DNA of 64,000 bases from Trypanosoma brucei. Lineage: Eukaryota. This document shows positions 4,159 through 53,925 of the stretch, piece after piece (position 1 is the first letter of the stretch; each line of letters opens with the position of its first letter). The notes below the pieces were generated by a model. That model saw only the letters and a list, made by a program, of their open reading frames with translations, was not told where the DNA came from and made no database searches. The stretch is from contig AL929603.2 in assembly GCA_000002445.1 (NCBI GenBank), forward strand, positions 192,001 to 256,000, written 5' to 3'. A program made the position numbers and the translations under genes.

Positions 4159-4423
4159 TAAACGAATAACAAAAATCAAAACAAAAGGATTGCTAATTGA
4201 CATCTTTGGGAGAGTCCGGGGTGAGGGGGGCTTCTCGCCCCATCTACTGTATTCCGTTCAACTGCGGAGCTACAACAAAAATTATAGAGGGTGTGTTAGG
4301 ATGAATAAAAAAGGGAGACTCTGCCACAGTCGCCAGACCGATAGCATCTCAGGGCTCTACGGTGATGGCTGATGGCCGCGCCAGTTGGGAGAAACTCTCA
4401 CGAAGGCACGAAGAAAATTCTAA

Positions 4424-4436
4424 AAAAAAAAAAATG
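4424..4436 (+). repeat. poly(A) tail of the plus-strand ingi
   Basis: A13 immediately after the RIME-like 3' sequence; abrupt change of sequence identity at 4437. Confidence 0.8.
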
Positions 4437-5090
4437 AGCTGGGCACCGTCAGTTGTCAGAAGCGTATCTATGTCAGTTGCCGTGAAGGTGTGTTTTGGTG
4501 GGATGTATGCCGACGTGACAGTCAGCGCCGTTCCACGTGCAAGGTGAATTGTTGCATGCACTTTTTCAATGCGACCAACAACGGCCATACCGGTCTCGAC
4601 TGGTAGGTCCTCCCTCACTAGTATTGATACACCACCTCCTTTGCAGTTACGAGCTATTCCGCGATGTTGGTAACCAGCAACGCTAAAGCAAGCCGCCTCT
4701 CCAGGCGTCATCCTTGTCTCGCTCAACAGACAAAAGGCGATCCGCTCATCAACAAGGGTTTTGTGGAGTGCTAATCTCTTTCCTTGAGATAGCCCGGCGC
4801 AGTTCCACTGCATCCCGCGCAACGACGGGCCGGGATTCTCTTCCACATCACCGGACAGCAGCATCTTAGTGCGGATGATATACTGCTGATGGCACGCTGG
4901 CACGTGCCCAGGGACCGACAAATGAAAAACGGTGTCCCAGCAAGACGCTGCTGATCCCTGTGCTGTATGATGCCGTAGCCGGAGCACAGCAGTGTTCCCT
5001 ATGGGAATAACGCTGCTGGCTCTTGGCTTCCCCCGATGATACGGGGTACTGGACCCTGGCACCACGTTGAGGTGGCCGGCATCGCCAGGG
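4437..5090 (-). mobile_element. 5' ~650 bp of a second ingi/RIME-family element in inverted orientation (Pr77 hallmark, 2A-like peptide, N-terminal AP-endonuclease), truncated by the nested plus-strand ingi
   Basis: Reverse complement of 5011-5090 reads CCCTGGCGATGCCGGCCACCTCAACGTGGTGCCAGGGTCCAGTACCCCGTATCATCGGGGGAAGCCAAGAGCCAGCAGCG, the conserved 5' hallmark of ingi/RIME/L1Tc. Minus-strand translation gives ...LLSGDVEENPGPSLRGMQWNCAGLSQGKRLALHK... (2A-like, then APE start). Confidence 0.85.
5011..5090 (-). promoter_or_regulatory. Pr77-like 5' hallmark of ingi/RIME (described as an internal promoter in L1Tc)
   Basis: Near-exact match, from memory, to the conserved ~77-80 nt 5' signature shared by trypanosomatid ingi/L1Tc-clade elements. 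The element 5' terminus CCCTGG lies at 5085-5090 on the minus strand. Confidence 0.6.
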
Positions 5091-6050
5091 AGAAGCGGCG
5101 AAAAGAGGCGACCCCAAGAAGGCGGATGTAGCAGAGAGCACCCTCGATCAAAGGAGCAAGCTCTGCACGAGGAACGGAAACAAAGACCAGGTGTAGCCTT
5201 GGATGGGGACCTTACGTGTCTGCTCTGCTCAAACCCAGAACGGCAACCTCTGCGGAGGCACAACGGGGGCCGGAACGTATGGCAAAGGCGGCACAGACAC
5301 GGCAGCGCAGGCACTAAAAGTGTGGGAAACAATCAAACCACTCTGTGAAGCGGCAGCGGTGGAACTGGAAACCACGGAACCGGCGATAACAACATGTATT
5401 CCCGGTTTTAAGGCCGCCCTCGGTGCCGGAATAACCGCAGCCGGCGACAGCGCGCTAAAGCTAGGCAACGGCGCAGCAACAACATGGTGCAATGACGCGG
5501 ATTCAGCTTCAGCATGCGTAGAATACATCCAAAAGGCAGCCGAAGGCGCGGTGGGGAAGATACTGCGCGTGAAACATGCAACTAGCCGCGGCTGCGCTTG
5601 CACAAGGGAAGTTGAGAGCAGCGCAACTAACGGCTGCACGAACGCAAATGCAGAAAGCAAGCTCAATAACATAGCGAAATTTGGAGCTTTCCCATTTTCT
5701 GCTGGCGGCTCCTGCCGCCAGCAGCGCAACAGCAAAACTTGACACAGCAACCGAAGGAGGCTGCAACAAACACACAAAAAAATGAATGCAATGACCCCTG
5801 CAAATGGGAAGAGGATGCGGCTGACAAAGACAAAAACTGCTCATTAGACACCAAAAAGGCAGCAGAACAACAAGCAACCCAAGCAGGAAAAGGAGGGAAG
5901 ACTTCAAAGTGCTCCAATAAGAAAGCTGAGGCCGAGTGTAAATCTCCGGGTTGTAAGTGGGATGGAAACACTTGCAAGAATTTCAGTTTCCTTGTAAAGA
6001 ATTTTGCCCTGAGTATGGCTGCTGCCTTTATCAACTTGGTAGTATTTTAA
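5091..6050 (+). pseudogene. VSG (variant surface glycoprotein) 3' fragment: end of N-terminal domain, cysteine-rich C-terminal domain and GPI-anchor signal. N-terminal part missing, internal frameshift near 5740
   Basis: ORF 5739..6050 encodes ...CNDPCKWEEDAADKDKNCS...CKSPGCKWDGNTCKNFSFLVKNFALSMAAAFINLVVF*, the classic T. brucei VSG C-terminal domain plus hydrophobic GPI signal (compare ...CKDSSILVTKKFALTVVSAAFVALLF). Upstream ORF 5203..5742 is in a different frame with a stop at 5194. The fragment abuts an ingi 5' end at 5090. Confidence 0.8.
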
Positions 6051-12417: not shown

Positions 12418-15400
12418 TCATTGCGATCCCATGAAATCAAGCGAAAGACGCGTACTTATTCCCATTCCTTGAAGTTCTTGAAGTAAAAGCTTGAAAGCGT
12501 AAGGGACATTTACACGTGAGACGGTATTTTTGGCATTGCAGTATGAACAGTAGCCGTTATAACCCATAAACCCACAGCAGCGGCAAATATCAATTGTGAA
12601 GAGGTCAGAACTCACAAGAAGTCGCTCATTAAGGAGGTTGGATGCGCCATATCCAACCATGCAATCTCTTTCCATTTCACCAACACGCAAACCTCCACTG
12701 CGGGATCGGCCTTCCGTGGGTTGCCTCGTCAACATGGAACGGGGTCCAGTGGCACGAGCGTGCATTTTGTCAGTAACCATGTGTTTTAAGCGTTGGTAAT
12801 AAATGGGGCCAAAGAAAACATAAGCCCGCAGCATCTCCCCCGTTACGCCTGAATAGAAAATATCTTTTCCGTGATAATTGTATCCATGCCGTATCAATTC
12901 CTCACCCAGATCCTCAGCCTTATCACCACCAAAGGCAGTGCCATCGCCGAACTTCCCCGTGAGTGCACTCACCTTTGAGCTAACGAGTTCCAGCAACTTT
13001 CCAACTGTCATACGGCTCGGGAATCCATGAGGATTCATGATCATATCCGGGCAAATGCCTTGCTCGTTGAAGGGCATGTTAACACCATCAGTGATGAGAC
13101 CCACTACTCCCTTCTGCCCGTGCCGTGAGGAAAACTTATCACCGGGCTCGGGGCCGCGAACTTCTCTCGTGACAACTTTAATTTTTTGTTCTACATCCAT
13201 TGATCTATCCGAGTCACCGGGAGGTGAGATGACCACATGATCCACAACAGCAGGCTGAGGGTATTTATATACGAGAGGATTAGGCCTTGGTTCCATGGAC
13301 GGCACGGGAGTGTATTTGTTTACCAAAATATCAAACTGACGAACGACCGCCCCTTTACTGGCAATACCATCGCTATTAAGAGCACTGTGTCTCCCAACAT
13401 TTGAATCTGCTGGAAGAATTATATCATACTCACCGTTGGGAAGCCTTTCCAGTTCCACCTCGTGCTTGCGGAGAACAACACAACGGCCGTAGCCACGATC
13501 GAGCGAACTGCGGTTGTAGACCTGAGCGTCCTCAATATCGTAACCGCTATAGCTCATAACGCATACCATCGCATTAATTCCTGCACCTAATATTTCGTAG
13601 TTGGTTAGGTTCATAGCCTTCGTCCGGCAAAGGGGCCGTTGCGGGTAAGCACCCAACATAAGTACTGTGTCCATTCTAATGTACTGATTATACGCAATGG
13701 TTCCAAGAGCTTGCTTGCCCATGGCTGACTGGAATGTGTTTCGTGCGGATTGATTGTGATGCGGAAAGGGAATAATGCCAGCGACAACCCCAAGCAGGGA
13801 AAGGGGCTCAATCTCCAAGTGGGTCGTGTACTGCTCAATGTCTTTGGGGTAGACTGCTATGAGACAGTCATTTGCCTCATTTACGTCAATGAATTCCACC
13901 AAACCTTCAGCTAAAAAATCGTTAATTGAACACTTGCCTGAACTCAAGTTATCCAAGTGTTGAGAAGTTACAGCGGGTTTCCCGTCGCGAACGACAATAT
14001 ACAACCGCACGATCCGTCCGCCATCGCAACCAATTTGAACACTCTTTTGGCGGTCATTTATCGCAATAGAAACGTGTGGATGCAGGCGGCCTGACCTCCT
14101 CAGGGTTCGTACACCCCGACACAAACGGCTCGGGTACCGGTGAATGCCCATCAACGTTCCATTGAGGAAAACTGTGTAATATTTAAGAAACTCGTTGGGG
14201 CTGATACAATCGACTTCCTCCACTCCAAGATTGTACGCAGCCGCACGCACAAACGAATCATCCATGTCGAGTGTTACCTGACTAAGAATAGCAAAGTTCT
14301 TAACCAAACCGCAACTTTCACCCTCTGGGGTATCGCAGGGACACACCATTCCCCATTGACTTGGCTGCAGCGAGCGCGGTCCACTGATTTTGCGGCTCTT
14401 TTCAAATGAAGATGCCAGACGGGTCATCATACCAATGCATGAAATGTAAGATAGCCGTGACAACACCTGCGTTATCCCCTGACGACTCATGTTAAACCGT
14501 TTCAATTCCCATCTGCCACTACTCAACGCCACACGCATTCCGTTCTGTATAACCTCCATTTTGCTTTCCATCAACTGTTTAAGATTGAATGGCTTTGTCG
14601 TGTCTTTTTTGGAAAGTAACTGATCCATTGCGGTCTTTACCACGCGGTTGTATTGTTTCAAGAGGTCTTCGAACAGGAGCCCCATTAGCGTCCCAGTTGT
14701 CTCGAAACGCTTGTTGCCGTAAAAATCACGTTCATCGAGGAGTGATGAATCCACACTCGCCTCTACCATGCGCCGAACCATAAAACAAACATACAACGCT
14801 TTGTGACGGAAGTTCCAATCACGCTGCACTTCCCCCTCTCGGATGTGACACAGAAGAACATTTGCAAGAAACTCCGCAGCGCTATCCGCCTTAGACTTTT
14901 GAACGTGTCGCTGCTGTGTTTCGTCCATTTCCCAGAAGGTCTCCTTTCGCCGTTCACCAATGAAGTGAAGCGCATCATCCTGTGTCTTAACATTAAGCGA
15001 GGCTGCGTGCTCGAAGCAGGCAAACAGTACGCTTTGAAAAGCGGGTGAAACTCCAATGTGTTGTGCAATCTGCTGGTCACTCTCCATGCCGAGCGCCTTT
15101 AATACTACTACGATGGGGATGTCTTCCTTAAAAGAACGGTGCACCATAACAATACGGCCTTTCCTGAAAGTAACTGAACACTTTGAGATGGAATAGTGCG
15201 TTTTGCTCTGCACATGTGCCACAATATCTCCGTTGTCATCCGCCTCGATAATGACACGATTCTTACTCTGCTGCTCCTGCACCAGGCAAACTTTCTCAAC
15301 ACCTTTAATAATGAAATACCCTCCAGGATCAAGTGGGCACTCCCGCATAGCAATCAGCTCCTCCCTCCCCTTCCCGTACAGGTTGCATGAACTCGATTTG

Positions 15401-15807
15401 AGCATAATGGGGATTGTCCCAATTTTAATATTGGTTTCAGTGCATATTCGTTTAGAGCGATCACGGCTAGTGTACTCCACATCCACTACAATATCGCCGC
15501 GATACGTGAGGTCCCGCGTGCGGCACTCATGCGGTGACACAGGCTTGGGAAGTTGACCCTTTCCCACAATCTCCCGGGGGCGGCAAACGCGAATACCTGA
15601 GTAGCGAATGGAAAAATCTGGATCAATGCTGCTCTTAATTTCTCTGTTTGACTCATTCAACAGAATTCGCCCCAGCTCCACATTGATAAGGTGATCAAAG
15701 GAGGCCACGTGATGGTTCAGCAGTCCCTTCATATTAATAAGGGCTGGAAGCAACGCCAACTTACGCGTGGCGTAACCCTCATCGCAACCACGGGCCCTAG
15801 GGGTCAT
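12418..15807 (-). CDS. RPC2: DNA-directed RNA polymerase III second-largest subunit (RPC2/C128 type)
   Basis: Second-largest-subunit signature GDKFSSRHGQKGVVG. The C-terminal 250 aa align far better to yeast Ret1/C128 (IIMNPHGFPSRMTVGK, GKD.FYSG.TGE, YGAS.LL.ERL..SSD, C..CG.MGY.G.C..C) than to Rpb2 (GDKFASRHGQKGT, ...CGICGL). N-terminus LALLPALINMKGLL.HH..SFD matches Ret1 [21 protein letters not shown]. Length 1129 aa. Confidence 0.85.
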   Translation of the reverse strand: MTPRARGCDEGYATRKLALLPALINMKGLLNHHVASFDHLINVELGRILLNESNREIKSSIDPDFSIRYSGIRVCRPREIVGKGQLPKPVSPHECRTRDLTYRGDIVVDVEYTSRDRSKRICTETNIKIGTIPIMLKSSSCNLYGKGREELIAMRECPLDPGGYFIIKGVEKVCLVQEQQSKNRVIIEADDNGDIVAHVQSKTHYSISKCSVTFRKGRIVMVHRSFKEDIPIVVVLKALGMESDQQIAQHIGVSPAFQSVLFACFEHAASLNVKTQDDALHFIGERRKETFWEMDETQQRHVQKSKADSAAEFLANVLLCHIREGEVQRDWNFRHKALYVCFMVRRMVEASVDSSLLDERDFYGNKRFETTGTLMGLLFEDLLKQYNRVVKTAMDQLLSKKDTTKPFNLKQLMESKMEVIQNGMRVALSSGRWELKRFNMSRQGITQVLSRLSYISCIGMMTRLASSFEKSRKISGPRSLQPSQWGMVCPCDTPEGESCGLVKNFAILSQVTLDMDDSFVRAAAYNLGVEEVDCISPNEFLKYYTVFLNGTLMGIHRYPSRLCRGVRTLRRSGRLHPHVSIAINDRQKSVQIGCDGGRIVRLYIVVRDGKPAVTSQHLDNLSSGKCSINDFLAEGLVEFIDVNEANDCLIAVYPKDIEQYTTHLEIEPLSLLGVVAGIIPFPHHNQSARNTFQSAMGKQALGTIAYNQYIRMDTVLMLGAYPQRPLCRTKAMNLTNYEILGAGINAMVCVMSYSGYDIEDAQVYNRSSLDRGYGRCVVLRKHEVELERLPNGEYDIILPADSNVGRHSALNSDGIASKGAVVRQFDILVNKYTPVPSMEPRPNPLVYKYPQPAVVDHVVISPPGDSDRSMDVEQKIKVVTREVRGPEPGDKFSSRHGQKGVVGLITDGVNMPFNEQGICPDMIMNPHGFPSRMTVGKLLELVSSKVSALTGKFGDGTAFGGDKAEDLGEELIRHGYNYHGKDIFYSGVTGEMLRAYVFFGPIYYQRLKHMVTDKMHARATGPRSMLTRQPTEGRSRSGGLRVGEMERDCMVGYGASNLLNERLLVSSDLFTIDICRCCGFMGYNGYCSYCNAKNTVSRVNVPYAFKLLLQELQGMGISTRLSLDFMGSQ

Positions 15808-27567: not shown

Positions 27568-28083
27568 TCATCTGGGTTCAAGTGCTTCTCTTCCTTCACT
27601 CGGTCCTCCATTCCATGCGATGGGTGTCACCGTTACGGTCGGCCGCGGCATTGCAATAAATCGCCCCATCAGCTCCACCTGAGGTACTGGCGGAGGGCAG
27701 TTGTTCATACGTCCATCGAAGTAAGCGACTTGCGTGTAGTATCCGACGCGCAGAAACTCCTGCTCCCTGTACTGAAAAGATATTACGAGAATTGTAACCC
27801 CTAACACTTCCTGCGTAGGAACCAACTCCACCTGCGGTGGGTCACATTCCATTGTGAATTCCGTCACCCCCTGCGCAAGAGGTCCTACATCAAAGGAATC
27901 GAGTACCTGATCATGGTTTGGTGATGCAGCACTACCGACCCACACGAAAGCAATGGATATGGTGTCATCTAATGCTTCTAAAGCCTCTAACCGCATCCGC
28001 CAGTGCATTGGTTGGGTGTAAGAAGAAGGATTGTCCCCTATCAGTTCTATCTCCAAAAGTTGTACAATTGGTTGTATGCTCAT
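27568..28083 (-). CDS. ASF1A: ASF1 anti-silencing function histone chaperone (H3/H4 chaperone)
   Basis: MSIQPIVQLLEIELIGDNP...WRMRLEALEALDD...VGP...G...F...PP...LVPTQEVLGVTILVISFQYREQEFLRVGYY matches the conserved ASF1 N-terminal Ig-like core (yeast MSIVSLLGIKVLNNP...[22 protein letters not shown]). Start taken at the second Met (MSIQ). Confidence 0.85.
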   Translation of the reverse strand: MSIQPIVQLLEIELIGDNPSSYTQPMHWRMRLEALEALDDTISIAFVWVGSAASPNHDQVLDSFDVGPLAQGVTEFTMECDPPQVELVPTQEVLGVTILVISFQYREQEFLRVGYYTQVAYFDGRMNNCPPPVPQVELMGRFIAMPRPTVTVTPIAWNGGPSEGREALEPR

Positions 28084-28726
28084 CCCTTCACCAAACCTCA
28101 ATTAAGCTACCGTTATAGATTGAATTCTTGTATTGTTCCCTGATTTGGGTCCAATTCACTAATGTAATTACTTGGAATTATGTGTGTGTGCGTGTGTGTT
28201 TAAGAAGCTTAGGCGCCGCGTTCGCTAAAAGCGTCTATGATTTTAACAAATCTTGTGATGTCTATCTATGTCACTGCGCAGTAACAGCGAAAACGTTTTG
28301 GGCGCGCGACAGCCGAGTATGTCCTTAAGTACTGCCGTACTGACGAATGTGCAACACTACTACCACGTCCTTCCCTCAGTTCTTTCGTTTTTCTTGGCTG
28401 AAATTGAAAGTGCAAAAAAAAAAAAAAGGGAAGTGGCAAGGTTTAAATTCTCAAAACAAATAAATAAAAACACAAACTTCAGGTTAAGCTTCTGTCTTGG
28501 CCTTCGTTCTATGCTGCGCAGACCCACAACTACTTAACCAGAGGAGCGGAAAAAAAAAGAACCAGACTCTTGAGAGAACCTTGTCCGAACGCAGAGTACG
28601 AAACCAAAATATTGACAATGAGAGTTATGACAATGCGAGAGGGATCAAGTTTTGAATGAAACGATGAAGGTATACCCGGCGAAAGGATCATCACTAAGAA
28701 CATATACTAACACACACCTTCCCTGG

Positions 28727-31700
28727 CTATTCTCGCATAAGATCAGCGACGCTACACTGTTCCTTGATGAAAGTAGCACGAACCATTTCACTTCCCTCTA
28801 CACTGAACATGAACAGGCAATGCTTCAAGGAGCCAGAAAGAATATTGAGCAACATCTTCCATTCATTAGAGAGCCATTGCAAACCGACCAACTCCTCCGG
28901 TGGGGTCCCTGAGACATCGGAGGTAATTTCCACCACGTGCGATTGAGTGAGAAGCCGCCACCAGCACTCTTCGTGAGGTGTCTGCCAATCTTCTAATTGT
29001 TTAATGCGAGCCAAGTAATAATCCGCAAAAATCTCGTCCACTGTTAAGGCGCATGCTCGTTTCAATGGAATACACTGCTCCAATAATGAATGAAGCACGG
29101 AAGGAGATCTTACCTTGGTTTGAGCGCATTGTTTTGCGGTGGCACCAAATTGAATATCAGCCTCAAAGTACACAAGGCTCTGAGAAAAGTCCGAGGGGGA
29201 CACTACAAACTTTCCACTTCCAGAGACGAGAGTGCTGGGACGGCCACCCAAAATCTCAATGCATTCGGGTTTGTCAGAGCCCTGGCACTTGAGAAGCCGA
29301 AATCCCACAATGTTGCCAAATACATGACGCCGTGGGCTAGCCTTGACATTCGAGGACCTTAAATCCTCTACCTGTTCTTCTTCACTGCTTAAGGTACGTG
29401 CTGCACTTGTTTCTGAAACCGTAATACTCTGCTCAACAGGGGTAGATGCTTCCTGGCGTAATTGATACCGTGGAGACGGCTGCGCTGTGGCTGCAGGATT
29501 AGGTAACTCATCCCCTCCAACCAGTTCTCTCGACAGTCGACATATATCGGCCCGAGCTTCCTCACTCAACGTCCGCATTCGTAGCAGCTCCTCAGAACGG
29601 GCAATAATAGGCCTACTTGACTTCGCCATCCCACGAATTTTCCCAAGTGACTCAACAACACCGCGAAGGAGCGGCTCAGCAGGACGGCTGTAAACCTTCG
29701 TGTACTCATTCGCCAGTACGTGTATGCAATCGGGTCCCAAGTCCTCCGCGCAACGTATAAAAGAAGCATTCTGCACAATAACAGGTGTGAATGGTATTGA
29801 TGGCAAAGCAAGCACAATCTCTTTTGAGCCCGTGGCATGTGGGACATCAATCATAAAGTAGGAAGCCGGAACACATCCAGGTTTCCATCCGTCATTTAAG
29901 GCCACGATAATATGTGAGTTGACCGTGTCCACACTCTTGGTGCCGACGAACAAGCCAGCAAAATCGATGGCATCACCTGTCTCTGTTTTTGGGGACACAT
30001 CTTCAGCTGAGCGCAAAGGTTGCCTCACAAACCCCTTACGCGGCGGTGAGACTATGCTATACCGAAGAGGGCTCCGAGAGTACAAAACTGTCGTCCGCTG
30101 GAAGGGGTGACCAGGTCGGAAGCGTGAAGGGGTTACGGAGAAAACGACAATCTCAGCTCCCTCCGGTGGAAAATCACACGAATGTTCCTCCAAATCCCCC
30201 GCCGGACAGTTGGCACCGCAATCATCCCATATTTGCAAGAGGACGTCCCCCTGTCGCTCACAAGACAACAAAAACGATGTCAGACGTGAAAGTTGTCGGT
30301 CACTTTTTCCTTCAAACGGAGCAACAGCTCCGCGTGCCATACATTCCTGGAAACTTAGCTGCGCCAATAAACTCCTCACAATTTTCAACGCACCACCTGT
30401 GCTGCCTCTTGTGTCGCCAGTTCGCGCACCCTTAAATGTTTTCTCAAGGAAAAAGGGCGGAAGCACGCGCTCCACTCGCCCTTTCAAACAAGGTACCAAA
30501 CCACCAAGCATATCCATAGCGGAAGGCAGCAGTGTCGGCAAACAAGTATGATAGAGACCTAGAGGTGAGGAAGGTCCCACAGGTTGTGTGCAGTTGTAGT
30601 TAATGGAGAGGAGCACTTCATCTTTGCATTCTAGTGGAGAACAACAGTCTCTCCTCAGCATCCTCGCACCGCAAGTAACAATCTTCTGACCACACCGCAG
30701 GGTTCCATTACGAACTAAGTTCGTTAATGGAATATCAAGAGACACTTTAACGTGGTAAAACCCATCGGAAACCACTGCCGTGCAGGTGTGAGGAGTAAGG
30801 CGCTCCTCAAAAGATACCGACACTACCCAGACTACCACCAGTGAGGCTGCTTGAACGTCCCCTTCCGCAATCAAACGCAAAGCAGGCCGTTTGCCCTCAA
30901 CATACTCGTGATTATATTTAAAACACATGTGAAGCAAAGTATGTGCGACAGAAAACACGGGAAGGGGTGGATCAATGTGTAATGTGAGTCCCCGCAACTT
31001 CAGAAGCGTGGACGTCAACATTTGAAGACACCACGCATCTGGGCAGCCCCGTGGAGAAGCCCCCAAGGTAAGCATGGCCTTACGAAAATTTGCCGATGGT
31101 ATGAACTCACACTCCGCTGGTATTTCCAGTAACTTCAGAAGTTCAGGTGAACACCCAAATTGCTTAAACAAAAAGTTTCCTCGCACAATCTCGTCAATTG
31201 AGGGAGGTACCGTCATCGATAATGAGCGAAACGTGAAAATGTCAAACGAAAGATGTCGGGGGGTTCGACCTACTTCCGACCCCTCACCCTCTGAACTCGG
31301 CATGTGGGACGCCGATGGCACCGCTTCCCCTACTCCTTTCGCAACCGCTCCTTTATTCTTAGCAAAAGGAACCACAAACGGCTTTCTTGCTAGCTTGGAT
31401 GATGACAATGGCGATGATGATGCTGATTTACGGTGTGTACGTGGCGTCCTCTTCGACAAGGAGGCACCTGCTCCCGAAATGGGTTTAGCAGATGAAGCTG
31501 CGTTCGCACTTGCTACTTGCAGTGACGACTCTGATACAGTTACGGTTTTACCAGCGGCAGATACAAAAAGCGTTGGAACATCTGTGGAATTTCCTTGTAC
31601 CGCAGTGCTCTCTTGGCCATTTTCAGTATTCATTCGTGCCCTTGCTACTTGCAGTGACGACTCTGATACAGTTATGGGTTTACCAGCGGCAGATACAAAA

Positions 31701-33673
31701 AGCGTTGGAACATCTGTGGAATTTCCTTGTACCGCAGTGCTCTCTTGGCCATTTTCAGTATTCATTCGTGCCCTTGCTACTTGCAGTGACGACTCTGATA
31801 CAGTTATGGGTTTACCAGCGGCAGATACAAAAAGCGTTGGAACATCTGTGGAATTTCCTTGTACCGCAGTGCTCTCTTGGCCATTTTCAGTATTCATTCG
31901 TGCCCTTGCTACTTGCAGTGACGACTCTGATACAGTTATGGGTTTACCAGCAGCAGATACAAAAAGCGTTGGAACATCTGTGGAATTTCCTTGTACCGCA
32001 GTGCTCTCCTGGCCATTTTCAGTATTCATTCGTGCCCTTGCTACTTGCAGTGACGACTCTGATACAGTTATGGGTTTACCAGCAGCAGATACAAAAAGCG
32101 TTGGAACATCTGTGGAATTTCCTTGTACCGCAGTGCTCTCTTGGCCATTTTCAGTATTCATTCGTGCCCTTGCTACTTGCAGTGACGACTCTGATACAGT
32201 TATGGGTTTACCAGCGGCAGATACAAAAAGCGTTGGAACATCTGTGGAATTTCCTTGTACCGCAGTGCTCTCTTGGCCATTTTCAGTATTCATTCGTGCC
32301 CTTGCTACTTGCAGTGACGACTCTGATACAGTTATGGGTTTACCAGCGGCAGATACAAAAAGCGTTGGAACATCTGTGGAATTTCCTTGTACCGCAGTGC
32401 TCTCTTGGCCATTTTCAGTATTCATTCGTGCCCTTGCTACTTGCAGTGACGACTCTGATACAGTTATGGGTTTACCAGCAGCAGATACAAAAAGCGTTGG
32501 AACATCTGTGGAATTTCCTTGTACCGCAGTGCTCTCCTGGCCATTTTCAGTATTCATTCGTGCCCTTGCTACTTGCAGTGACGACTCTGATACAGTTATG
32601 GGTTTACCAGCAGCAGATACAAAAAGCGTTGGAACATCTGTGGAATTTCCTTGTACCGCAGTGCTCTCCTGGCCATTTTCAGTATTCATTCGTGCCCTTG
32701 CTACTTGCAGTGACGACTCTGATACAGTTATGGGTTTACCAGCGGCAGATACAAAAAGCGTTGGAACATCTGTGGAATTTCCTTGTACCGCAGTGCTCTC
32801 TTGGCCATTTTCAGTATTCATTCGTGCCCTTGCTACTTGCAGTGACGACTCTGATACAGTTATGGGTTTACCAGCGGCAGATACAAAAAGCGTTGGAACA
32901 TCTGTGGAATTTCCTTGTACCGCAGTGCTCTCTTGGCCATTTTCAGTATTCATTCGTGCCCTTGCTACTTGCAGTGACGACTCTGATACAGTTATGGGCT
33001 TACCAGCAGCAGATACAAAAAGCGTTGGAACATCTGTGGAATTTCCTTGTACCGCAGTGCTCTCTTGGCCATTTTCAGTATTCATTCGTGCCCTTGCTAC
33101 TTGCAGTGACGACTCTGATACAGTTATGGGTTTACCAGCGGCAGATACAAAAAGCGTTGGAACATCTGTGGAATTTCCTTGTACCGCAGTGCTCTCCTGG
33201 CCATTTTCAGTATTCATTCGTGCCCTTGCTACTTGCAGTGACGACTCTGATACAGTTATGGGTTTACCAGCAGCAGATACAAAAAGCGTTGGAACATCTG
33301 TGGAATTTCCTTGTACCGCAGTGCTCTCCTGGCCATTTTCAGTATTCATTCGTGCCCTTGCTACTTGCAGTGACGACTCTGATACAGTTATGGGTTTACC
33401 AGCAGCAGATACAAAAAGCGTTGGAACATCTGTGGAATTTCCTTGTACCGCAGTGCTCTCTTGGCCATTTTCAGTCCCGTACGTGCGGTCCCTCCTCGGC
33501 TGAATTCTCGTTTCCCTCTCCTGCAGTGGACTTTTTCCTTGTACACTTTCTCCAGACCGACTGCGTTGTCTCTTGGGGGCATCGGAGCGGCACTTCGTAC
33601 GGTTCCGTTGCGGCGTATCGGAATTTTGGCGCGCTCCAGAGTTGCTGCCTTGTCTTCCTTTTTTGTGGCTCAT
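28727..33673 (-). CDS. BRCA2: BRCA2 homologue with 15 tandem BRC repeats and C-terminal DNA-binding (helical/OB) region. ORF open to 33934, but the 5' 87 codons are UTR-like, so start placed at MSHKKGRQ
   Basis: Fifteen copies of a 44-aa unit ...TENGQESTAVQGNSTDVPTLFVSAAGKPITVSESSLQVARARMN, each containing the BRC core F-x-x-A-x-G-K (LFVSAAGK..V.ESSL). Long C-terminal region follows. Expanded BRC number is a known feature of T. brucei BRCA2. Confidence 0.85.
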   Translation of the reverse strand: MSHKKGRQGSNSGARQNSDTPQRNRTKCRSDAPKRQRSRSGESVQGKSPLQERETRIQPRRDRTYGTENGQESTAVQGNSTDVPTLFVSAAGKPITVSESSLQVARARMNTENGQESTAVQGNSTDVPTLFVSAAGKPITVSESSLQVARARMNTENGQESTAVQGNSTDVPTLFVSAAGKPITVSESSLQVARARMNTENGQESTAVQGNSTDVPTLFVSAAGKPITVSESSLQVARARMNTENGQESTAVQGNSTDVPTLFVSAAGKPITVSESSLQVARARMNTENGQESTAVQGNSTDVPTLFVSAAGKPITVSESSLQVARARMNTENGQESTAVQGNSTDVPTLFVSAAGKPITVSESSLQVARARMNTENGQESTAVQGNSTDVPTLFVSAAGKPITVSESSLQVARARMNTENGQESTAVQGNSTDVPTLFVSAAGKPITVSESSLQVARARMNTENGQESTAVQGNSTDVPTLFVSAAGKPITVSESSLQVARARMNTENGQESTAVQGNSTDVPTLFVSAAGKPITVSESSLQVARARMNTENGQESTAVQGNSTDVPTLFVSAAGKPITVSESSLQVARARMNTENGQESTAVQGNSTDVPTLFVSAAGKPITVSESSLQVARARMNTENGQESTAVQGNSTDVPTLFVSAAGKPITVSESSLQVARARMNTENGQESTAVQGNSTDVPTLFVSAAGKTVTVSESSLQVASANAASSAKPISGAGASLSKRTPRTHRKSASSSPLSSSKLARKPFVVPFAKNKGAVAKGVGEAVPSASHMPSSEGEGSEVGRTPRHLSFDIFTFRSLSMTVPPSIDEIVRGNFLFKQFGCSPELLKLLEIPAECEFIPSANFRKAMLTLGASPRGCPDAWCLQMLTSTLLKLRGLTLHIDPPLPVFSVAHTLLHMCFKYNHEYVEGKRPALRLIAEGDVQAASLVVVWVVSVSFEERLTPHTCTAVVSDGFYHVKVSLDIPLTNLVRNGTLRCGQKIVTCGARMLRRDCCSPLECKDEVLLSINYNCTQPVGPSSPLGLYHTCLPTLLPSAMDMLGGLVPCLKGRVERVLPPFFLEKTFKGARTGDTRGSTGGALKIVRSLLAQLSFQECMARGAVAPFEGKSDRQLSRLTSFLLSCERQGDVLLQIWDDCGANCPAGDLEEHSCDFPPEGAEIVVFSVTPSRFRPGHPFQRTTVLYSRSPLRYSIVSPPRKGFVRQPLRSAEDVSPKTETGDAIDFAGLFVGTKSVDTVNSHIIVALNDGWKPGCVPASYFMIDVPHATGSKEIVLALPSIPFTPVIVQNASFIRCAEDLGPDCIHVLANEYTKVYSRPAEPLLRGVVESLGKIRGMAKSSRPIIARSEELLRMRTLSEEARADICRLSRELVGGDELPNPAATAQPSPRYQLRQEASTPVEQSITVSETSAARTLSSEEEQVEDLRSSNVKASPRRHVFGNIVGFRLLKCQGSDKPECIEILGGRPSTLVSGSGKFVVSPSDFSQSLVYFEADIQFGATAKQCAQTKVRSPSVLHSLLEQCIPLKRACALTVDEIFADYYLARIKQLEDWQTPHEECWWRLLTQSHVVEITSDVSGTPPEELVGLQWLSNEWKMLLNILSGSLKHCLFMFSVEGSEMVRATFIKEQCSVADLMRE
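31504..33487 (-). repeat. BRC repeat array: 15 x 132 bp, nearly identical at nucleotide level
   Basis: Period measured directly (e.g. ccattttcagtattcattcgtg at 31617 and 31749). The three variable sites I translated (gcg/gca, cttggcc/cctggcc, ggtttacc/ggcttacc on the plus strand) are all synonymous in the minus-strand frame. Confidence 0.9.
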
Positions 33674-34020
33674 AATAATCAGAATTTGACTTCCGAGCAG
33701 ATTAATTAAACAACACACGGGGAATTTCAGGATGGAAGAAAAGGAGGAGGAGGAGGAGGAGCCGAAAAAGAAGAAAAAGGGGACCGGAATGTAGTGCAAA
33801 CAAAGTACTAAAAGGCATTCAATTGCACGCGTGTGGAGGTGGAGGTGGTGAGAATGAGCGAGCAGAAACGTCGGTGCAAAGGGCACGCACCGGGACAACA
33901 ACGGTATACACTTATGTATACTCAGTATCAACAAGCGCAGATGTGAATATTCGCTTCCGCGACAGCAAACAGTACCGCAGAAAGGGGGAAAAGGGCCCTA
34001 ACAGATGCCCACCTTTCTTG

Positions 34021-50277: not shown

Positions 50278-53200
50278 CTACCGTATCATTGGTAAGAAGC
50301 GCTGATCTCGCCGCAGGTCGTGGCAGAGATAACTGTACTTGTATTTGATCTTTTTCTTCGCCACACCTGCAGGTTGTGGGGTTGGAAGGGCAATAGCAAC
50401 GGCACCGTCCGCCTCATCCGTAACGGTATCTGCGGAGGCCTTCTCTGGAACAACCCACGTAAATTCTTTTAAGTCCACAAGTGGAACGGGTGGGAACTCT
50501 AAATTGCGGTTAATGCAAAGCAATTGAACAGCAAACATTGCCCAATATGCAAATGCACTAGCCACATGTGACTCAGGTAAGAGAGTGAGGTGATGGAGTT
50601 CAGGCCGAAGAACGTCCCAACAAAGTTGATATAATAAAGGAAGAGGAATCTGTGCGTCCTCGAAATTTTGCAGCATTGTCTCCATCGTTACGGAGCATCT
50701 CTGTGTGACACGTTCAACAAACCATTGGGACGACAGTCTCTCCGAGCAGTTGGCAAGCAGAGTGCTCACCGTACCTAAAAGGCAACAGTGATTAGGCTTT
50801 CCATGCAATCTATAATGATGAATATAAGCCATCACTTCATCAGGTCGGATACCGTCAAACGCGTGTGCGATCTCCTTACGGCAATGCTGTCGTCGAACAT
50901 CTCGCTCCTCCTTTGCCATCACACGACGACTTTTTAGGCTGCTGATTCCGGAGAGTCGACATGCGACGGCAACCCGGCACACTAAGCTGGGGTTTCCCGC
51001 ATAGACTCGTTGCAACATTTCAACAAAATCCTTCTCATGTACTACTGATGAAAAGGGCTGGTCGCGAAACAACAACCACCTAGCGTCAGATAACCCGGCA
51101 TAGGCGAGTTGCCGTGTGACAACATTGAGGGGAACACCACTTTCTGTCCTCTCTGGATACTCGATAGATCTATAGAGGCGGCGAAAGAATCGCATCAGCA
51201 CCTCAAAGGGTCGATGAGACGACATGAGCTCAGTCACTGCAATGCAGCGATTCAAAAATGATAGCGCAACTTCTTCGCCGCAAATCGACACTGGATCCAA
51301 CACAGCTTTTACCACATTGTCACTTCTCAGAACCTGTGAACCCTCCAAATTCGAAATAACCGCGTCAACATATCGTTTTACATCACCCTCTAACGGGGAC
51401 AAGTCACAGCACCTTGTTAATATTGGTACCACATCCATTTCTGTAAAGTGACCACCAAATACGTGCTCAACTTCAGCAGCAAATGCGGACGCGGCGTCAC
51501 ATAAAGTTCGAACAACGAAAGCTATCAATGATGTACGGCGCCTGTCCAGAATCGCGATACGCACAACACAGCTGTTTTCGGCAACCCTCTTCAGTTCCTT
51601 GTATACATTGTCGGGCGTTAACTCCATGTCATCTAATTCCCCCCTTTCCACAAGGCGAAAACTCAACTCACCCATATCTTTTTCCTTCAACCCACATTCT
51701 TCCGCAAGGGCAGAGCGCATGTCCTCCAATGCACAGCCTGGACGAAGTACCAATGCCCGCATTACCTGTTGTGTCCCCCATGTGAAGAGACATTGCAAGG
51801 GAAGACCACTCGTACAAGGGTGACCCCTTACCGCAGTAACGTTAATACAGCTGCGTTTCTTCCTTATTGCCTCCCCCACCATTGCAGTAACGCCACTGGG
51901 GTTGCATAACGGAACACCATTACTATCATAAATAATTATGTTGTCCATATCAGTTAAATGAAGGGCGTTCAGGCATTCGTTCCGGAATGACTCAAACACC
52001 TTTGGTGACGCTTTCTTCCACGTTAAAAAAAAGCGAACAGGAGCCTTCTTTTCCAATGAACACGCGACCTCAACCACTACCTCGTTAGGAAGCTCCTCCT
52101 CAACATCGGAGCAATTTTTCTTCCCGCTGATACATTCCGTTGCGTTTTTTGAAGTCAATGGTGATTCATCGGCTCCCTTGCCATTTTTTGCCGTCACTGC
52201 ATCCCCATCCCCGCCCTTAAACCCAGTAGGGAGAACTTTCGCATTATTCCACGGACGCGAAGCAGCATTTCCCTCCCCAACCAAAACATCCTTCGTAAAA
52301 AGCGGTTCCAGTAATCTTCCTGATCCTATTTCACTGTCCCGTAAAGCAGGGGATTTCTTCATAGCGAAGGCATTCGGATCCCGGTCTTTTAGAAATACAC
52401 TCACGGCCAATGATAAATTTGGCTTCTCCACAATTTCTGCCTTGGCTGGTTCAGGGACTGCCACTGGTTTCACAGTCTCTGCCTTGGCTGGTTCAGGGAC
52501 TGCCACTGGTTTCACAGTCTCTGCCTTGGCTGGTTCAGGGACTGCCACTGGTTTCACAGTTTCTGCCTTGGCTGGTTCAGGGACTGCCACTGGTTTCACA
52601 GTCTCTGCCTTGGCTGGTTCAGGGACTGCCACTGGTTTCACAGTTTCTGCCTTGGCTGGTTCAGGGACTGCCACTGGTTTCACAGTTTCTGCCTTGGCTG
52701 GTTCAGGGACTGCCACTGGTTTCACAGTTTCTGCCTTGGCTGGTTCAGGGACTGCCACTGGTTTCACAGTTTCTGCCTTGGCTGGTTCAGGGACTGCCAC
52801 TGGTTTCACAGTTTCTGCCTTGGCTGGTTCAGGGACTGCCACTGGTTTCACAGTTTCTGCCTTGGCTGGTTCAGGGACTGCCACTGGTTTCACAGTCTCT
52901 GCCTTGGCTGGTTCAGGGACTGCCACTGGTTTCACAGTTTCTGCCTTGGCTGGTTCAGGGACTGCCACTGGTTTCACAGTCTCTGCCTTGGCTGGTTCAG
53001 GGACTGCCACTGGTTTCACAGTCTCTGCCTTGGCTGGTTCAGGGACTGCCACTGGTTTCACAGTTTCTGCCTTGGCTGGTTCAGGGACTGCCACTGGTTT
53101 CACAGTTTCTGCCTTGGCTGGTTCAGGGACTGCCACTGGTTTCACAGTTTCTGCCTTGGCTGGTTCAGGGGGCAAATTCTGGTCCATATTTTTTGAACGC

Positions 53201-53925
53201 GCGTTAACGACCGCACAAGTGGGAAGTTGATCGTTATCGTTCTTTGTGGATATGGGAACTTTGTTTTTATCTTCCTTCTTGTCAACTTCAGCTAGAGTCG
53301 CTCCTACCACCTTGGCTCCGGTGTCGCCTCTGCCAATATTATATGTAAGATGGCAAACGCTTCGTTGCGCCATACACGATCTTATAAGTAGAGCAGCTGC
53401 CTCCTCGCTGCATATCTCAGTCAACGCCTTACCGTTGCCTTCAGTGGAGAACAAGGTTAGTTGCTGTCCTGGCAACAAAACTTGCTGAATAGCGCCACGG
53501 ACCGCTACCAAGAGAGCCTTCCAGATCTCGCGACGAGGGGGAATAAAACGTTTCGTAGTTGGGACCCCTCCATCCGAGTGTTGAATGGATAACAGTACGA
53601 GCGGGTCATCCACCAGCATTGAGCTTCCCACGCCGCTATCACAATGATCTATAACCGCCGTGAACACAAAACAAGGGCAACTATGCACTGAAAAGAATGC
53701 CACCACATCATCATCGCTGAGCAGCTTGCGGGGCGCTTCATCCTGACCATGAGCAGCGGTAAGCTCGAAGGTACCATGTTGCAGGCGAAGGTCGTAACTT
53801 TTAAGTAAGTTAACCATCTCGAGTATAGTACTTGGAGCTTCCTCTATACTAAATGAGCGGAGGGTACATTCATTAGGCCCCCTGTATACCTCTAACCTAC
53901 ACAAAAAATTGCTGCGCATCGCCAT
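50278..53925 (-). CDS. large hypothetical protein (1215 aa) with central array of ~17 EPAKAETVKPVAVP repeats
   Basis: Long ORF with a unique N-terminal ~280 aa, a 42-bp repeat array encoding the identical 14-mer, and a unique ~650-aa C-terminal region. Confidence 0.6.
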   Translation of the reverse strand: MAMRSNFLCRLEVYRGPNECTLRSFSIEEAPSTILEMVNLLKSYDLRLQHGTFELTAAHGQDEAPRKLLSDDDVVAFFSVHSCPCFVFTAVIDHCDSGVGSSMLVDDPLVLLSIQHSDGGVPTTKRFIPPRREIWKALLVAVRGAIQQVLLPGQQLTLFSTEGNGKALTEICSEEAAALLIRSCMAQRSVCHLTYNIGRGDTGAKVVGATLAEVDKKEDKNKVPISTKNDNDQLPTCAVVNARSKNMDQNLPPEPAKAETVKPVAVPEPAKAETVKPVAVPEPAKAETVKPVAVPEPAKAETVKPVAVPEPAKAETVKPVAVPEPAKAETVKPVAVPEPAKAETVKPVAVPEPAKAETVKPVAVPEPAKAETVKPVAVPEPAKAETVKPVAVPEPAKAETVKPVAVPEPAKAETVKPVAVPEPAKAETVKPVAVPEPAKAETVKPVAVPEPAKAETVKPVAVPEPAKAETVKPVAVPEPAKAETVKPVAVPEPAKAEIVEKPNLSLAVSVFLKDRDPNAFAMKKSPALRDSEIGSGRLLEPLFTKDVLVGEGNAASRPWNNAKVLPTGFKGGDGDAVTAKNGKGADESPLTSKNATECISGKKNCSDVEEELPNEVVVEVACSLEKKAPVRFFLTWKKASPKVFESFRNECLNALHLTDMDNIIIYDSNGVPLCNPSGVTAMVGEAIRKKRSCINVTAVRGHPCTSGLPLQCLFTWGTQQVMRALVLRPGCALEDMRSALAEECGLKEKDMGELSFRLVERGELDDMELTPDNVYKELKRVAENSCVVRIAILDRRRTSLIAFVVRTLCDAASAFAAEVEHVFGGHFTEMDVVPILTRCCDLSPLEGDVKRYVDAVISNLEGSQVLRSDNVVKAVLDPVSICGEEVALSFLNRCIAVTELMSSHRPFEVLMRFFRRLYRSIEYPERTESGVPLNVVTRQLAYAGLSDARWLLFRDQPFSSVVHEKDFVEMLQRVYAGNPSLVCRVAVACRLSGISSLKSRRVMAKEERDVRRQHCRKEIAHAFDGIRPDEVMAYIHHYRLHGKPNHCCLLGTVSTLLANCSERLSSQWFVERVTQRCSVTMETMLQNFEDAQIPLPLLYQLCWDVLRPELHHLTLLPESHVASAFAYWAMFAVQLLCINRNLEFPPVPLVDLKEFTWVVPEKASADTVTDEADGAVAIALPTPQPAGVAKKKIKYKYSYLCHDLRRDQRFLPMIR
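52439..53170 (-). repeat. 42-bp tandem coding repeat (~17.4 copies) encoding EPAKAETVKPVAVP
   Basis: gccttggctggttcagggactgccactggtttcacagt(c/t)tct repeated. The only unit variation seen (c/t) is synonymous (GAG/GAA Glu). Confidence 0.9.

Follow-up and report, generated by a model that had tools for sequence, protein, structure and literature searches.

The BRC-repeat array of Trypanosoma brucei TREU927 BRCA2: unit homogeneity, silent variants and copy number

BRCA2 and RAD51 drive the recombination that underlies VSG antigenic variation and the stability of subtelomeres in Trypanosoma brucei. The BRC-repeat array of this BRCA2 has been described, together with its 14 + 1 organisation, its polymorphism among strains and its influence on RAD51 foci, in two earlier studies (Hartley & McCulloch 2008, PMC2408642; Trenaman et al. 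2013, PMC3553974) of the same locus, strain and protein as are treated here, from which the present description shows no substantive difference. The published array consists of 15 predicted repeats of 44 aa (132 bp), 14 of them identical and the C-terminal one degenerate, with on average fewer than one base change per repeat (PMC2408642). By MVR-PCR, the repeats per allele number 12 + 10 in Lister 427, 11 + 11 in TREU927, 12 + 12 in EATRO795, 8 + 5 in rhodesiense and 8 + 6 in gambiense (PMC2408642). The polymorphism in repeat number that a preliminary description of this DNA had supposed, from its letters alone, has therefore already been shown by experiment (PMC2408642, PMC3553974).

The same can be said of the suggested scaling of RAD51 loading with array length, as a RAD51-related readout does rise with repeat number (PMC2408642, PMC3553974). 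[quoted passage not shown] That BRC number tunes RAD51 focus formation thus belongs to the existing literature. The gene is not the essential repair gene that it had been called, since homozygous brca2 null mutants are viable in both bloodstream and procyclic forms (PMC3553974). At the level of the individual repeat, kinetoplastid BRC sequences bind RAD51 via the FxxA motif, which mimics the self-association (oligomerisation) motif of RAD51, together with an extended β-hairpin and without an LFDE module, and T(-2) and V/L(-4) are common to the Trypanosoma repeats (PMC9162458).

Against this background, the contribution of the present analysis is mostly cautionary. The additions are an explicit three-column census of the variation among units, a higher-order block of four units, the match of that block size to a discrepancy of 15 versus 11 in copy number, and a nucleotide comparison with gambiense and T. 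equiperdum. The anatomy, identity, variant census, comparative copy numbers and higher-order structure given below are direct observations; RAD51 dependence and strain polymorphism are taken from the literature.

The window, which is the whole 64,000-nucleotide stretch of DNA analysed, contains the following gene and the parts of it that flank its array.

28727..33673, minus strand: BRCA2 coding sequence, from open reading frame and translation (ATG at 33673, stop included, 1648 aa, N terminus MSHKKGRQ)
33476..33673, minus strand: N terminus without repeats, 66 aa, identical in nucleotide sequence to that of T. b. gambiense DAL972
30422..30949, minus strand: core of the DNA/DSS1-binding domain, from Pfam PF09103 and PDB matches

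The 1648-aa coding sequence is an exact match to BRCA2 of T. b. brucei TREU927 (CAJ15962.1 / XP_001218767.1); its protein cluster has four members, BRCA2 of Lister 427, T. evansi and rhodesiense lying outside the proteins compared. This match, together with Pfam families PF00634 and PF09103, bears out the earlier assignment of the gene as BRCA2 and of its units as BRC repeats. The main reading, to which we give a probability of roughly 0.93, is that this is the array of BRC repeats in BRCA2 (Tb927.1.640) of T. b. brucei TREU927 already known from Hartley & McCulloch 2008 and from Trenaman et al. 2013. None of the evidence runs against this identification. PF00634 (BRC repeat) matches the whole protein with E = 9.2e-90 in 14 independent stretches, and when units are scanned singly an internal unit reaches 27.2 bits and the last unit 21.1 bits, the cut-off being 20.3. 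The FxxA tetrad is FVSA in 15 of 15 units, with T at -2 and V at -4. An LFDE-type module is absent, the equivalent tetrad being RMNT in the internal units and missing from the last one. The LFDE module is a trait of the human-type clade and is not needed across the BRC family, because LiBRC1 binds RAD51 at sub-micromolar affinity without a functional LFDE.

In the C-terminal part of the protein, OB1 (PF09103) occupies aa 930-1041 (30551..30886; E = 5e-28), and approximately aa 909-1084 align in a phmmer search of PDB to the mammalian BRCA2 structures 1iyj, 1miu and 1mje (E = 7e-21 to 7e-19). The families of the helical domain, tower/OB2 and OB3 (PF09169, PF09121 and PF09104) gave no Pfam match at E <= 0.01, and the PDB alignments span only about 175 residues; most elements of the DNA-binding domain are described as conserved in T. 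brucei BRCA2 (PMC2408642). Homologues were sought with the protein minus units 1-14, as repeat words saturate a full-length query. Eight Trypanosoma species have annotated BRCA2 proteins that are 40-53% identical over the C-terminal 900 aa, and the L. major protein is 29% identical. ASF1 lies downstream of BRCA2 in three loci of the T. brucei group (TREU927, gambiense and T. equiperdum). Rfam and tRNA scans across the 64-kb window returned no matches. Pfam also returned DUF3956, PirA-like and NLE on the sense protein, each with 0 independent stretches, a weak chance match being summed over 14-15 identical copies.

Tandem Repeats Finder places the array at 31509..33475, with a period of 132, 14.9 copies, 99% matches, 0% indels and a score of 3829. 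In the minus-strand coding register it forms 15 units of 44 codons (31496..33475), unit 1 being 33475..33344 and unit 15 being 31627..31496; the interval 31504..33487 of the preliminary description is the same array with the register slightly shifted.

31628..33475, minus strand: BRC units 1-14, 132 bp / 44 aa each (TENGQESTAVQGNSTDVPTLFVSAAGKPITVSESSLQVARARMN), protein-identical
31496..31627, minus strand: BRC unit 15, the degenerate last unit (GKTVTV...QVASANAA), in which repeat homology stops near 31509

Unit 15 differs at 13 nucleotides, which comprise P28T (31546), I29V (31543), R40S (31508) and the tail 31497-31505. The earlier statement that only the last unit diverges (GKTVTVSESSLQVASAN) is accordingly correct, the three substitutions being followed by the diverged tail ...QVASANAA. 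A full census of units 1-14 finds only three variable nucleotide columns, all of them synonymous transitions at codon position 3.

32009..33329, minus strand: variable column 1, unit position 15 (CAA/CAG, Gln), with G in units 2, 3, 7, 8 and 12
33329, 33197, 32669, 32537 and 32009, minus strand: G sites of column 1, from the census
31556..33140, minus strand: variable column 2, unit position 72 (GCT/GCC, Ala), with C in units 3, 5, 6, 9, 10, 13, 14 and 15
33140, 32876, 32744, 32348, 32216, 31820, 31688 and 31556, minus strand: C sites of column 2, from the census
32999, minus strand: variable column 3, unit position 81 (AAA/AAG, Lys), with G in unit 4 only

Read at positions 15/72/81, the 14 internal units have the haplotypes ATA, GTA, GCA, ATG, ACA, ACA, GTA, GTA, ACA, ACA, ATA, GTA, ACA and ACA. 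The three variants that had been sampled at first prove to be the complete set among the internal units, all synonymous, and the unit-by-unit census of units 1-14 contains no non-synonymous difference.

How this silence should be interpreted is a more difficult question. Homogenisation with selection against amino-acid change, or else a very recent expansion, had been proposed; the synonymous-only pattern is real, but with three sites the inference of selection is weak. If purifying selection on every unit were the main cause, with concerted evolution spreading neutral silent variants, an excess of synonymous columns would be anticipated, and 3 of 3 compares with an expected 26% among all changes (P = 0.018) or 33% among transitions only (P = 0.035). 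Likewise, the window contains an unrelated 42-bp coding array (52429..53170) whose single variable column is again a synonymous wobble transition, which brings the total over the two arrays to 4/4, and the BRC cores of other trypanosomes are strongly conserved at the protein level. Differences between TREU927 and gambiense in the rest of the gene, outside the array, are 2 synonymous and 6 non-synonymous, although the contrast with the array's 3:0 reaches only P = 0.06 by Fisher's test. Further complicating this interpretation, the last unit of TREU927 carries P28T and I29V, lineage-specific non-synonymous changes within the BRC motif, and with them the tally becomes 3 synonymous and 2 non-synonymous (P = 0.11-0.20). 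Moreover, any one unit of 15 should be only weakly selected because 4 repeats suffice for repair, the 4-repeat protein repairing damage as well as full-length BRCA2 (PMC3553974). The same three variants are silent also in the antisense open reading frame 31074..33503, whose wobble positions are those of the sense frame, so that silence alone cannot identify the coding frame. We put purifying selection as the main cause at appreciably less than even odds. Synonymous-only variation fits a recent origin and homogenisation with some purifying selection; because the variable sites are so few, recency, homogenisation and selection are inseparable, and "all synonymous" on three sites cannot bear a selection argument.

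The array also generates long open reading frames on the opposite strand, which are present as had been stated and are spurious.

31074..33503, plus strand: spurious antisense open reading frame, 809 aa, with no Pfam family and with wobble positions common to the sense frame
31492..33675, plus strand: spurious antisense open reading frame, 727 aa, in which all Pfam matches have 0 independent stretches

That either is a real antisense gene is extremely improbable. Both exceed 700 aa and the three variants are silent in 31074..33503, but the sharing of wobble positions follows from the geometry of that antisense frame, and in 31492..33675 the three variants occupy second codon positions and are non-synonymous. 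The openness of the frames is fully accounted for by 15-fold repetition of a unit in which two of the three antisense frames contain no stop codon. Neither plus-strand frame has a real Pfam match, the sense frame is BRCA2 exactly as in the databases, and between about 4.3 kb and 64 kb every neighbouring gene is on the minus strand, as expected of a trypanosome polycistron. Nudc_N, DUF4728 and other families returned for 31492..33675 are repeat-summed scores with 0 independent stretches. Antisense open reading frames and repeat-summed Pfam scores across arrays of this kind are artefacts.

Another confounding issue is the number of units itself. Assembly collapse had been named as a risk of the array, and a different copy number as a result that would count against the first description of it. 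The count does differ, at 15 in the assembly and 11 per TREU927 allele by MVR-PCR, which goes part of the way to such a result; the discrepancy is an apparent excess and not a collapse, and the risk at this array is one of over-counting as much as of collapse. The difference of four units corresponds in size to a feature of the assembled sequence.

31557..32668, strand not applicable: higher-order block of four units (528 bp), a 584-bp exact self-repeat of 31557-32140 to 32085-32668

In a lag-specific scan, the longest exact run at the four-unit lag is this one of 584 bp, with no other lag exceeding 329 bp, and units 7-10 are one base apart from units 11-14. The lag-4 periodicity of the haplotype string has a permutation P of 0.035, uncorrected, with 7 lags tested. 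The block size is exactly the difference between 15 and 11.

It is nearly an even bet, if somewhat short of one, that the 15 units, perhaps along with some of the variant pattern, are a product of misassembly and that the true TREU927 alleles have 11. A diploid Sanger-era shotgun assembly could have duplicated a four-unit block or merged reads of two alleles, and the exact repeat at the four-unit lag has a length like that of a Sanger read, in an array exceeding by exactly 4 units the 11 repeats published for each TREU927 allele (PMC2408642). Assemblies of related genomes fail at the same place: the T. equiperdum contig begins within the array, the gene models of T. congolense and T. rangeli are truncated, and the DAL972 assembly has 4 units where PCR found 8 and 6 in another gambiense isolate. 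The PCR count is open to objections of its own, however, as MVR-PCR can under-detect the longest products, and the Southern confirmation in PMC2408642 is described only for Lister 427 and gambiense. A laboratory stock of TREU927 may also truly have lost one four-unit block relative to the sequenced clone, and the private variant of unit 4 and the non-periodic units 1-4 resemble real sequence, not a collapsed or duplicated consensus. The literature search brought up no long-read support for the repeat number, a 2025 nanopore paper on T. brucei having BRCA2 as a mutant background only and further papers that name Tb927.1.640 having titles on other subjects. It would be unsafe to treat the 15 units of the reference as the actual state of TREU927.

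Comparison with gambiense and other trypanosomes supports a recent and dynamic array. The gambiense DAL972 assembly has 4 units, all with the TREU927 consensus haplotype, and the remaining gene differs between the two at 8 of 2769 nucleotides. In the last unit 3 of 119 nucleotides differ, as compared with 8 of 2980 elsewhere (P = 0.007), and this excess implies that in one of the two lineages homogenisation has extended to the last unit. That unit reads GKPITV in both gambiense and T. equiperdum, whereas TREU927 has GKTVTV. As a separate observation on synonymous sites, piS among units is 0.034 versus a TREU927-gambiense synonymous divergence of 0.003, values that come from only 3 and 2 sites and carry no firm claim. 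With an in-frame period (132 = 3 x 44) and copy numbers of 15 in the TREU927 assembly versus 4 in that of DAL972, and of 5-12 per allele by published PCR across strains, the array has the properties of a coding minisatellite.

Among other kinetoplastids, T. vivax, T. grayi and T. melophagium have one BRC motif per protein, and T. cruzi, T. conorhini, T. theileri and L. major have two; the gene models of T. congolense IL3000 and T. rangeli are N-terminally truncated, which places the published 2-3 near-identical T. congolense repeats outside the comparison. Within a species, BRC core identity is 92% in T. cruzi, 98% in T. conorhini and 91% in T. theileri (83%, 93% and 83% at third positions), whereas between species it is 61-82% (33-70% at third positions). 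Paralogous units or cores within a genome are thus more alike than orthologues between species, silent sites included, which is the pattern of concerted evolution. Judged by these alignments, concerted evolution seems to act on the two BRC cores of T. cruzi, T. conorhini and T. theileri. As in T. brucei, their motifs lie at a spacing of 44-45 aa and their cores are near-identical; unlike in T. brucei, where the whole 132-bp unit is homogeneous, there are two copies, only the 90-nt core is homogenised and the spacers are unrelated. Because spacer and core are both homogeneous in T. brucei, its array points to a recent amplification of the whole unit. A broader proposal is that Trypanosoma BRC cores are kept identical within each genome by gene conversion limited to the core of about 90 nt, and that T. 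brucei has escalated to whole-unit amplification, its array changing in four-unit (528-bp) steps fast enough to separate the clone (15) from the laboratory stock (11). We consider this rather unlikely; were it true, selection would be favouring RAD51-binding modules that are alike, the reverse of mammalian BRC repeats, which have diverged in function. In the literature collection searched, no paper brings BRC repeats and concerted evolution together, and the four-unit block and the genus-wide homogenisation restricted to cores are best viewed as small leads.

A mechanism consistent with these features can be outlined. Each 44-aa unit comprises a BRC motif of about 30 aa (VPTLFVSAAGKPITVSESSLQVARARM) and a spacer of about 14 aa, and FVSA, by mimicry, may bind one RAD51 monomer per unit, as is predicted for the T. 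brucei units. The long array could then carry many RAD51 molecules per BRCA2 molecule, with the C-terminal OB-fold domain presumably binding DNA and DSS1. At the level of DNA, the array is an in-frame minisatellite (132 = 44 x 3) derived from recent amplification of the whole unit, core and spacer together, in which unequal exchange or slippage among 99%-identical units may produce both homogeneity and length variation, with changes in length that apparently include steps of four units.

Among known BRC systems, mammalian BRCA2, with 8 BRC repeats and a BRC4-RAD51 structure, shares with the T. brucei array the FxxA RAD51-binding motif (PF00634), and in both proteins the repeats lie N-terminal to the OB-fold DNA/DSS1-binding domain. 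The mammalian repeats are, however, dispersed and diverged and have a second, LFDE module, whereas the T. brucei units are tandem and identical, with RMNT at the LFDE-equivalent position; in this they resemble Leishmania BRC1, which binds without the LFDE module (PMC9162458). BRCA2 of Leishmania infantum and L. major has in common with that of T. brucei the kinetoplastid motif VPTLF-x-x-A-x-GK-x-x-TV, including T(-2) and V(-4) of the extended β-hairpin, but has only two repeats, 38 aa apart and 50% identical, with an approximately 50-fold difference in affinity (LiBRC1-RAD51 crystal structure, PMC9162458). A recent lineage-specific BRC expansion has likewise been described in dmbrca2 of Drosophila yakuba (Bennett, Mercer & Noor 2010, PMC2882388), where polymorphism in repeat number is ascribed to unequal crossing over with recurrent contractions (PMC2882388). 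The Drosophila expansion is an independent event in an animal, and its units are fewer and less identical than those of T. brucei.

The repeat-bearing protein is the BRCA2 that the preliminary description took it for: along its full length it is identical to the TREU927 protein CAJ15962.1 / XP_001218767.1 (Trypanosoma brucei brucei), encoded on a 1.06-Mb contig that represents chromosome 1. Read from the ATG at 33673, taken as the biologically sensible start, it comprises 1648 residues (N terminus MSHKKGRQ), in which Pfam recognizes 14 independent stretches of the BRC repeat (PF00634, E = 9e-90) as well as BRCA-2_OB1 at residues 930-1041 (PF09103, E = 5e-28). Scanned singly, internal and last units score 27.2 and 21.1 bits against PF00634 (cut-off 20.3 bits), and the C-terminal 922 residues match structures of the rat/mouse BRCA2 DNA-binding domain (1iyj, 1miu and 1mje; E = 7e-21 to 7e-19). 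Essentially all ORFs between ~4.3 kb and 64 kb of the window share the minus strand, the arrangement to be expected of a trypanosome polycistron. In T. b. gambiense and T. equiperdum, too, ASF1 lies downstream of BRCA2. An AT-rich, ORF-poor stretch (~7.5-9.5 kb, GC 0.31-0.36) lies ahead of the minus-strand gene cluster.

376..4158, plus strand, non-LTR retrotransposon-type ORF (reverse transcriptase, RNase H, C2H2 zinc finger; 1260 aa, TTG start)
4349..5332, minus strand, endonuclease/exonuclease/phosphatase-like ORF (weak, below the Pfam cut-off), adjoining the retrotransposon ORF
12418..15807, minus strand, RNA polymerase second-largest subunit, first gene of the minus-strand cluster
27568..28101, ASF1 histone chaperone, downstream neighbour of BRCA2
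28727..33934, minus strand, BRCA2-containing ORF from the ORF listing
33475..33344, minus strand, BRC unit 1, in-frame register
31627..31496, minus strand, BRC unit 15, in-frame register

Tandem Repeats Finder reports one tandem array at 31509..33475 (period 132, 14.9 copies, 99% matches, 0 indels, score 3829), the same array as that placed earlier at 31504..33487 in a slightly shifted register; in the coding register it consists of 15 units of 44 codons. When every unit was aligned in frame, units 1-14 proved to encode an identical peptide, TENGQESTAVQGNSTDVPTLFVSAAGKPITVSESSLQVARARMN, and only 3 of the 132 nucleotide positions vary among them, all three as third-position synonymous transitions.

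Unit position 15, CAA/CAG (Gln), G in units 2, 3, 7, 8 and 12
Unit position 72, GCT/GCC (Ala), C in units 3, 5, 6, 9, 10, 13 and 14
Unit position 81, AAA/AAG (Lys), G in unit 4 only

The three variants sampled in the preliminary description are thus the full set for the internal units, and the census of all 14 found no amino-acid change. The divergence reported for the last unit is likewise borne out by 13 differences in unit 15, including P28T, I29V and R40S, with a tail of ASANAA in place of ARARMN.

This array is already known in detail. Hartley & McCulloch (2008) described exactly this TREU927 array, predicting 15 repeats of 44 aa / 132 bp, 14 of them identical and the C-terminal one degenerate, with the repeats of one strain or of different strains averaging less than one base change each (PMC2408642). 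The possibility of assembly error was examined in that study by MVR-PCR, Southern analysis and clone sequencing, which gave 11 repeats in each TREU927 allele, against the 15 predicted, and 12 + 10 in Lister 427, 12 + 12 in EATRO795, 8 + 5 in T. b. rhodesiense and 8 + 6 in T. b. gambiense, a variation ascribed by its authors to ongoing expansion and contraction (PMC2408642). The suspected polymorphism in repeat number is therefore a matter of published record. With a single BRC repeat the protein supports plasmid integration and RAD51 focus formation less well, whereas VSG switching is not impaired (PMC2408642). Contrary to the earlier description of the gene as essential, T. brucei BRCA2 is not, since null mutants were obtained in both bloodstream and procyclic cells (Trenaman et al. 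2013; PMC3553974). The proposal that RAD51 loading scales with repeat number holds for the proportion of cells that form RAD51 foci, which rises linearly with BRC number (1, 4, 7, 10, 12), but not for repair of phleomycin damage, which is restored by at least four repeats, the 4-repeat protein equalling full-length BRCA2 (PMC3553974).

Reducing each of units 1-14 to its bases at positions 15, 72 and 81 gives the string ATA GTA GCA ATG ACA ACA GTA GTA ACA ACA ATA GTA ACA ACA, in which position 72 alternates CC TT CC TT CC from unit 5 on. Mismatch between unit haplotypes is minimal at a lag of four (permutation P = 0.035, uncorrected for the 7 lags tested), and the longest exact self-match, 584 bp (31557-32140 against 32085-32668), lies at exactly four units, with matches at every other lag of at most 329 bp; units 7-10 and 11-14 are one base apart. 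The lag-four minimum and the 584-bp match therefore identify duplication of a 528-bp, 4-unit block as the latest recorded event. By size, one such block accounts exactly for the excess of the 15 assembled units over the 11 found experimentally. Either the Sanger-era assembly of a diploid over-counted units or merged alleles, or the laboratory TREU927 stock lost one block by unequal exchange. The reference count of 15 is unverified and calls for caution; the dynamics of the 4-unit block are a small but testable lead.

For TREU927 the discrepancy is opposite to the assembly collapse that was feared, more units being assembled than measured; collapse or breakage is evident elsewhere. The DAL972 assembly of T. 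b. gambiense has 4 units, against 8 and 6 by PCR in another gambiense isolate; T. equiperdum contig CZPT02001863.1 begins inside the array (position 1); and gene models are truncated in T. congolense IL3000 (4.9-kb contig) and T. rangeli (3-kb contig). Public BRCA2 models of these last three species under-report or omit repeats. In several trypanosomes, then, assemblies or gene models are broken or cut short at the BRC region or immediately downstream of it.

How much the silent-only pattern says about selection is a further question. As 26% of all possible single-base changes in the unit, or 33% of transitions, are synonymous, three of three has a probability of 0.018 or 0.035, respectively. 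In the rest of the gene, 8 of 2769 nucleotides separate TREU927 from DAL972 (2 synonymous, 6 non-synonymous; pN/pS ~1), and Fisher's test comparing 3:0 with 2:6 yields P = 0.06. The last unit of gambiense and T. equiperdum reads GKPITV, as in internal units, so that P28T and I29V (GKTVTV; window 31546 and 31543, respectively), both within the BRC motif, distinguish TREU927 from these taxa; with these two included, the tally is 3 synonymous against 2 non-synonymous changes and P = 0.11-0.20. GKTVTV also occurs at the same positions in L. major BRC2, through ancestral retention or coincidence. Furthermore, selection on any single unit of 15 should be weak, because a 4-repeat protein repairs like the full-length one. 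A second, unrelated coding array in the window offers a comparison.

52429..53170, within minus-strand ORF 50278..53925, 42-bp x 17.7-copy coding array, 98% identical
52178..53230 and 52410..53207, plus strand, spurious ORFs from the 42-bp array

The 42-bp array specifies the same 14-aa unit (PEPAKAETVKPVAV) 17 times over, within a 1215-aa protein that matches no Pfam family. It too is silent-only: its sole variable column is an A/G difference at the third codon position, synonymous and seen in 6 of the 17 units. Taken together, the two arrays tip the evidence slightly toward purifying selection or a mutational bias to wobble transitions. The silent-only variation of the BRC units is genuine and fits selection plus homogenization, as first read, without demonstrating either; three silent sites do not suffice as proof of selection and are easily over-read.

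Nor can silence identify the coding frame, because the antisense plus-strand ORF 31074..33503 shares its wobble positions and none of the three variants changes an amino acid in that ORF either. The coding frame is identified instead by its homology to BRC repeats and OB folds and by the strand on which the polycistron runs. This ORF and 31492..33675 are both in the ORF listing, and their openness, earlier judged spurious, follows from a unit that is stop-free in two of three antisense frames. The former has no Pfam match; those of the latter (Nudc_N, DUF4728 and others), like DUF3956, PirA-like and NLE on the sense protein, exceed gathering scores without any independently significant stretch and were rejected as artefacts. 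Weak chance similarity summed across 15 identical copies inflates whole-protein scores, and the PF13104 (DUF3956) annotation precomputed for the BRCA2 protein cluster is probably the same artefact.

The most likely mechanism operates at two levels. In the protein, partly from the literature, the FxxA-centred hairpin of each unit would occupy the RAD51 oligomerization site and the OB-fold domain would target DNA, so that more units per molecule would sequester and deliver more RAD51 and yield more damage-induced foci. In the DNA, the anatomy suggests an in-frame minisatellite which, being 99% identical over 2 kb, would lend itself to unequal exchange between sisters or homologues, to single-strand annealing or to slippage, in single- and multi-unit steps that would both homogenize the units and vary their number.

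Within T. brucei and its close relatives, all three gambiense internal units are ATA, identical to the TREU927 consensus, and the partial and last units of T. equiperdum agree with those of gambiense. Between TREU927 and gambiense, the last unit shows 3 differences over 119 repeat-homologous nucleotides, compared with 8 over 2980 elsewhere in BRCA2 (P = 0.007), an excess indicating that in one lineage this unit was overwritten by, or diverged from, the internal type.

Published counts elsewhere are one BRC repeat in T. vivax, 2-3 in T. congolense and two in T. cruzi and L. major (PMC2408642). The suggested comparison with these small numbers, by pattern matching supported by Pfam, gave one motif in T. 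vivax, T. grayi and T. melophagium and two in T. cruzi, T. conorhini, T. theileri and L. major; copy number therefore changes repeatedly within the genus, T. melophagium having one motif and its relative T. theileri two. In T. cruzi (Dm28c), T. conorhini and T. theileri, motif starts are 44-45 residues apart, the period of T. brucei, and the cores lie at:

BRCA2 codons ~64-93, first BRC core
BRCA2 codons ~108-138, second BRC core

Within these species the 90-nt cores are 92, 98 and 91% identical (third positions 83, 93 and 83%), with unrelated flanking spacers. Between species, identity is 61-82% (third positions 33-70%) with no orthology signal between cores, T. cruzi core 1 being equally close to cores 2 and 1 of T. 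conorhini. From these sequences, 90-nt segments in three species, the two-repeat trypanosomes apparently undergo core-confined gene conversion rather than recent duplication. In T. brucei, by contrast, spacer and core are both homogeneous, the mark of whole units having been amplified recently. Concerted evolution restricted to the core, across the genus Trypanosoma, is a modest testable lead; an incomplete search of the literature found no paper linking BRC repeats to concerted evolution. In the complex with RAD51 solved by Pantelejevs & Hyvonen (2022), Leishmania BRC1 binds via FxxA and an extended beta-hairpin, without the LFDE module, and Trypanosoma repeats share its T(-2) and V/L(-4) residues (PMC9162458), both of which are present in the VPTLFVSA of the T. 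brucei unit.
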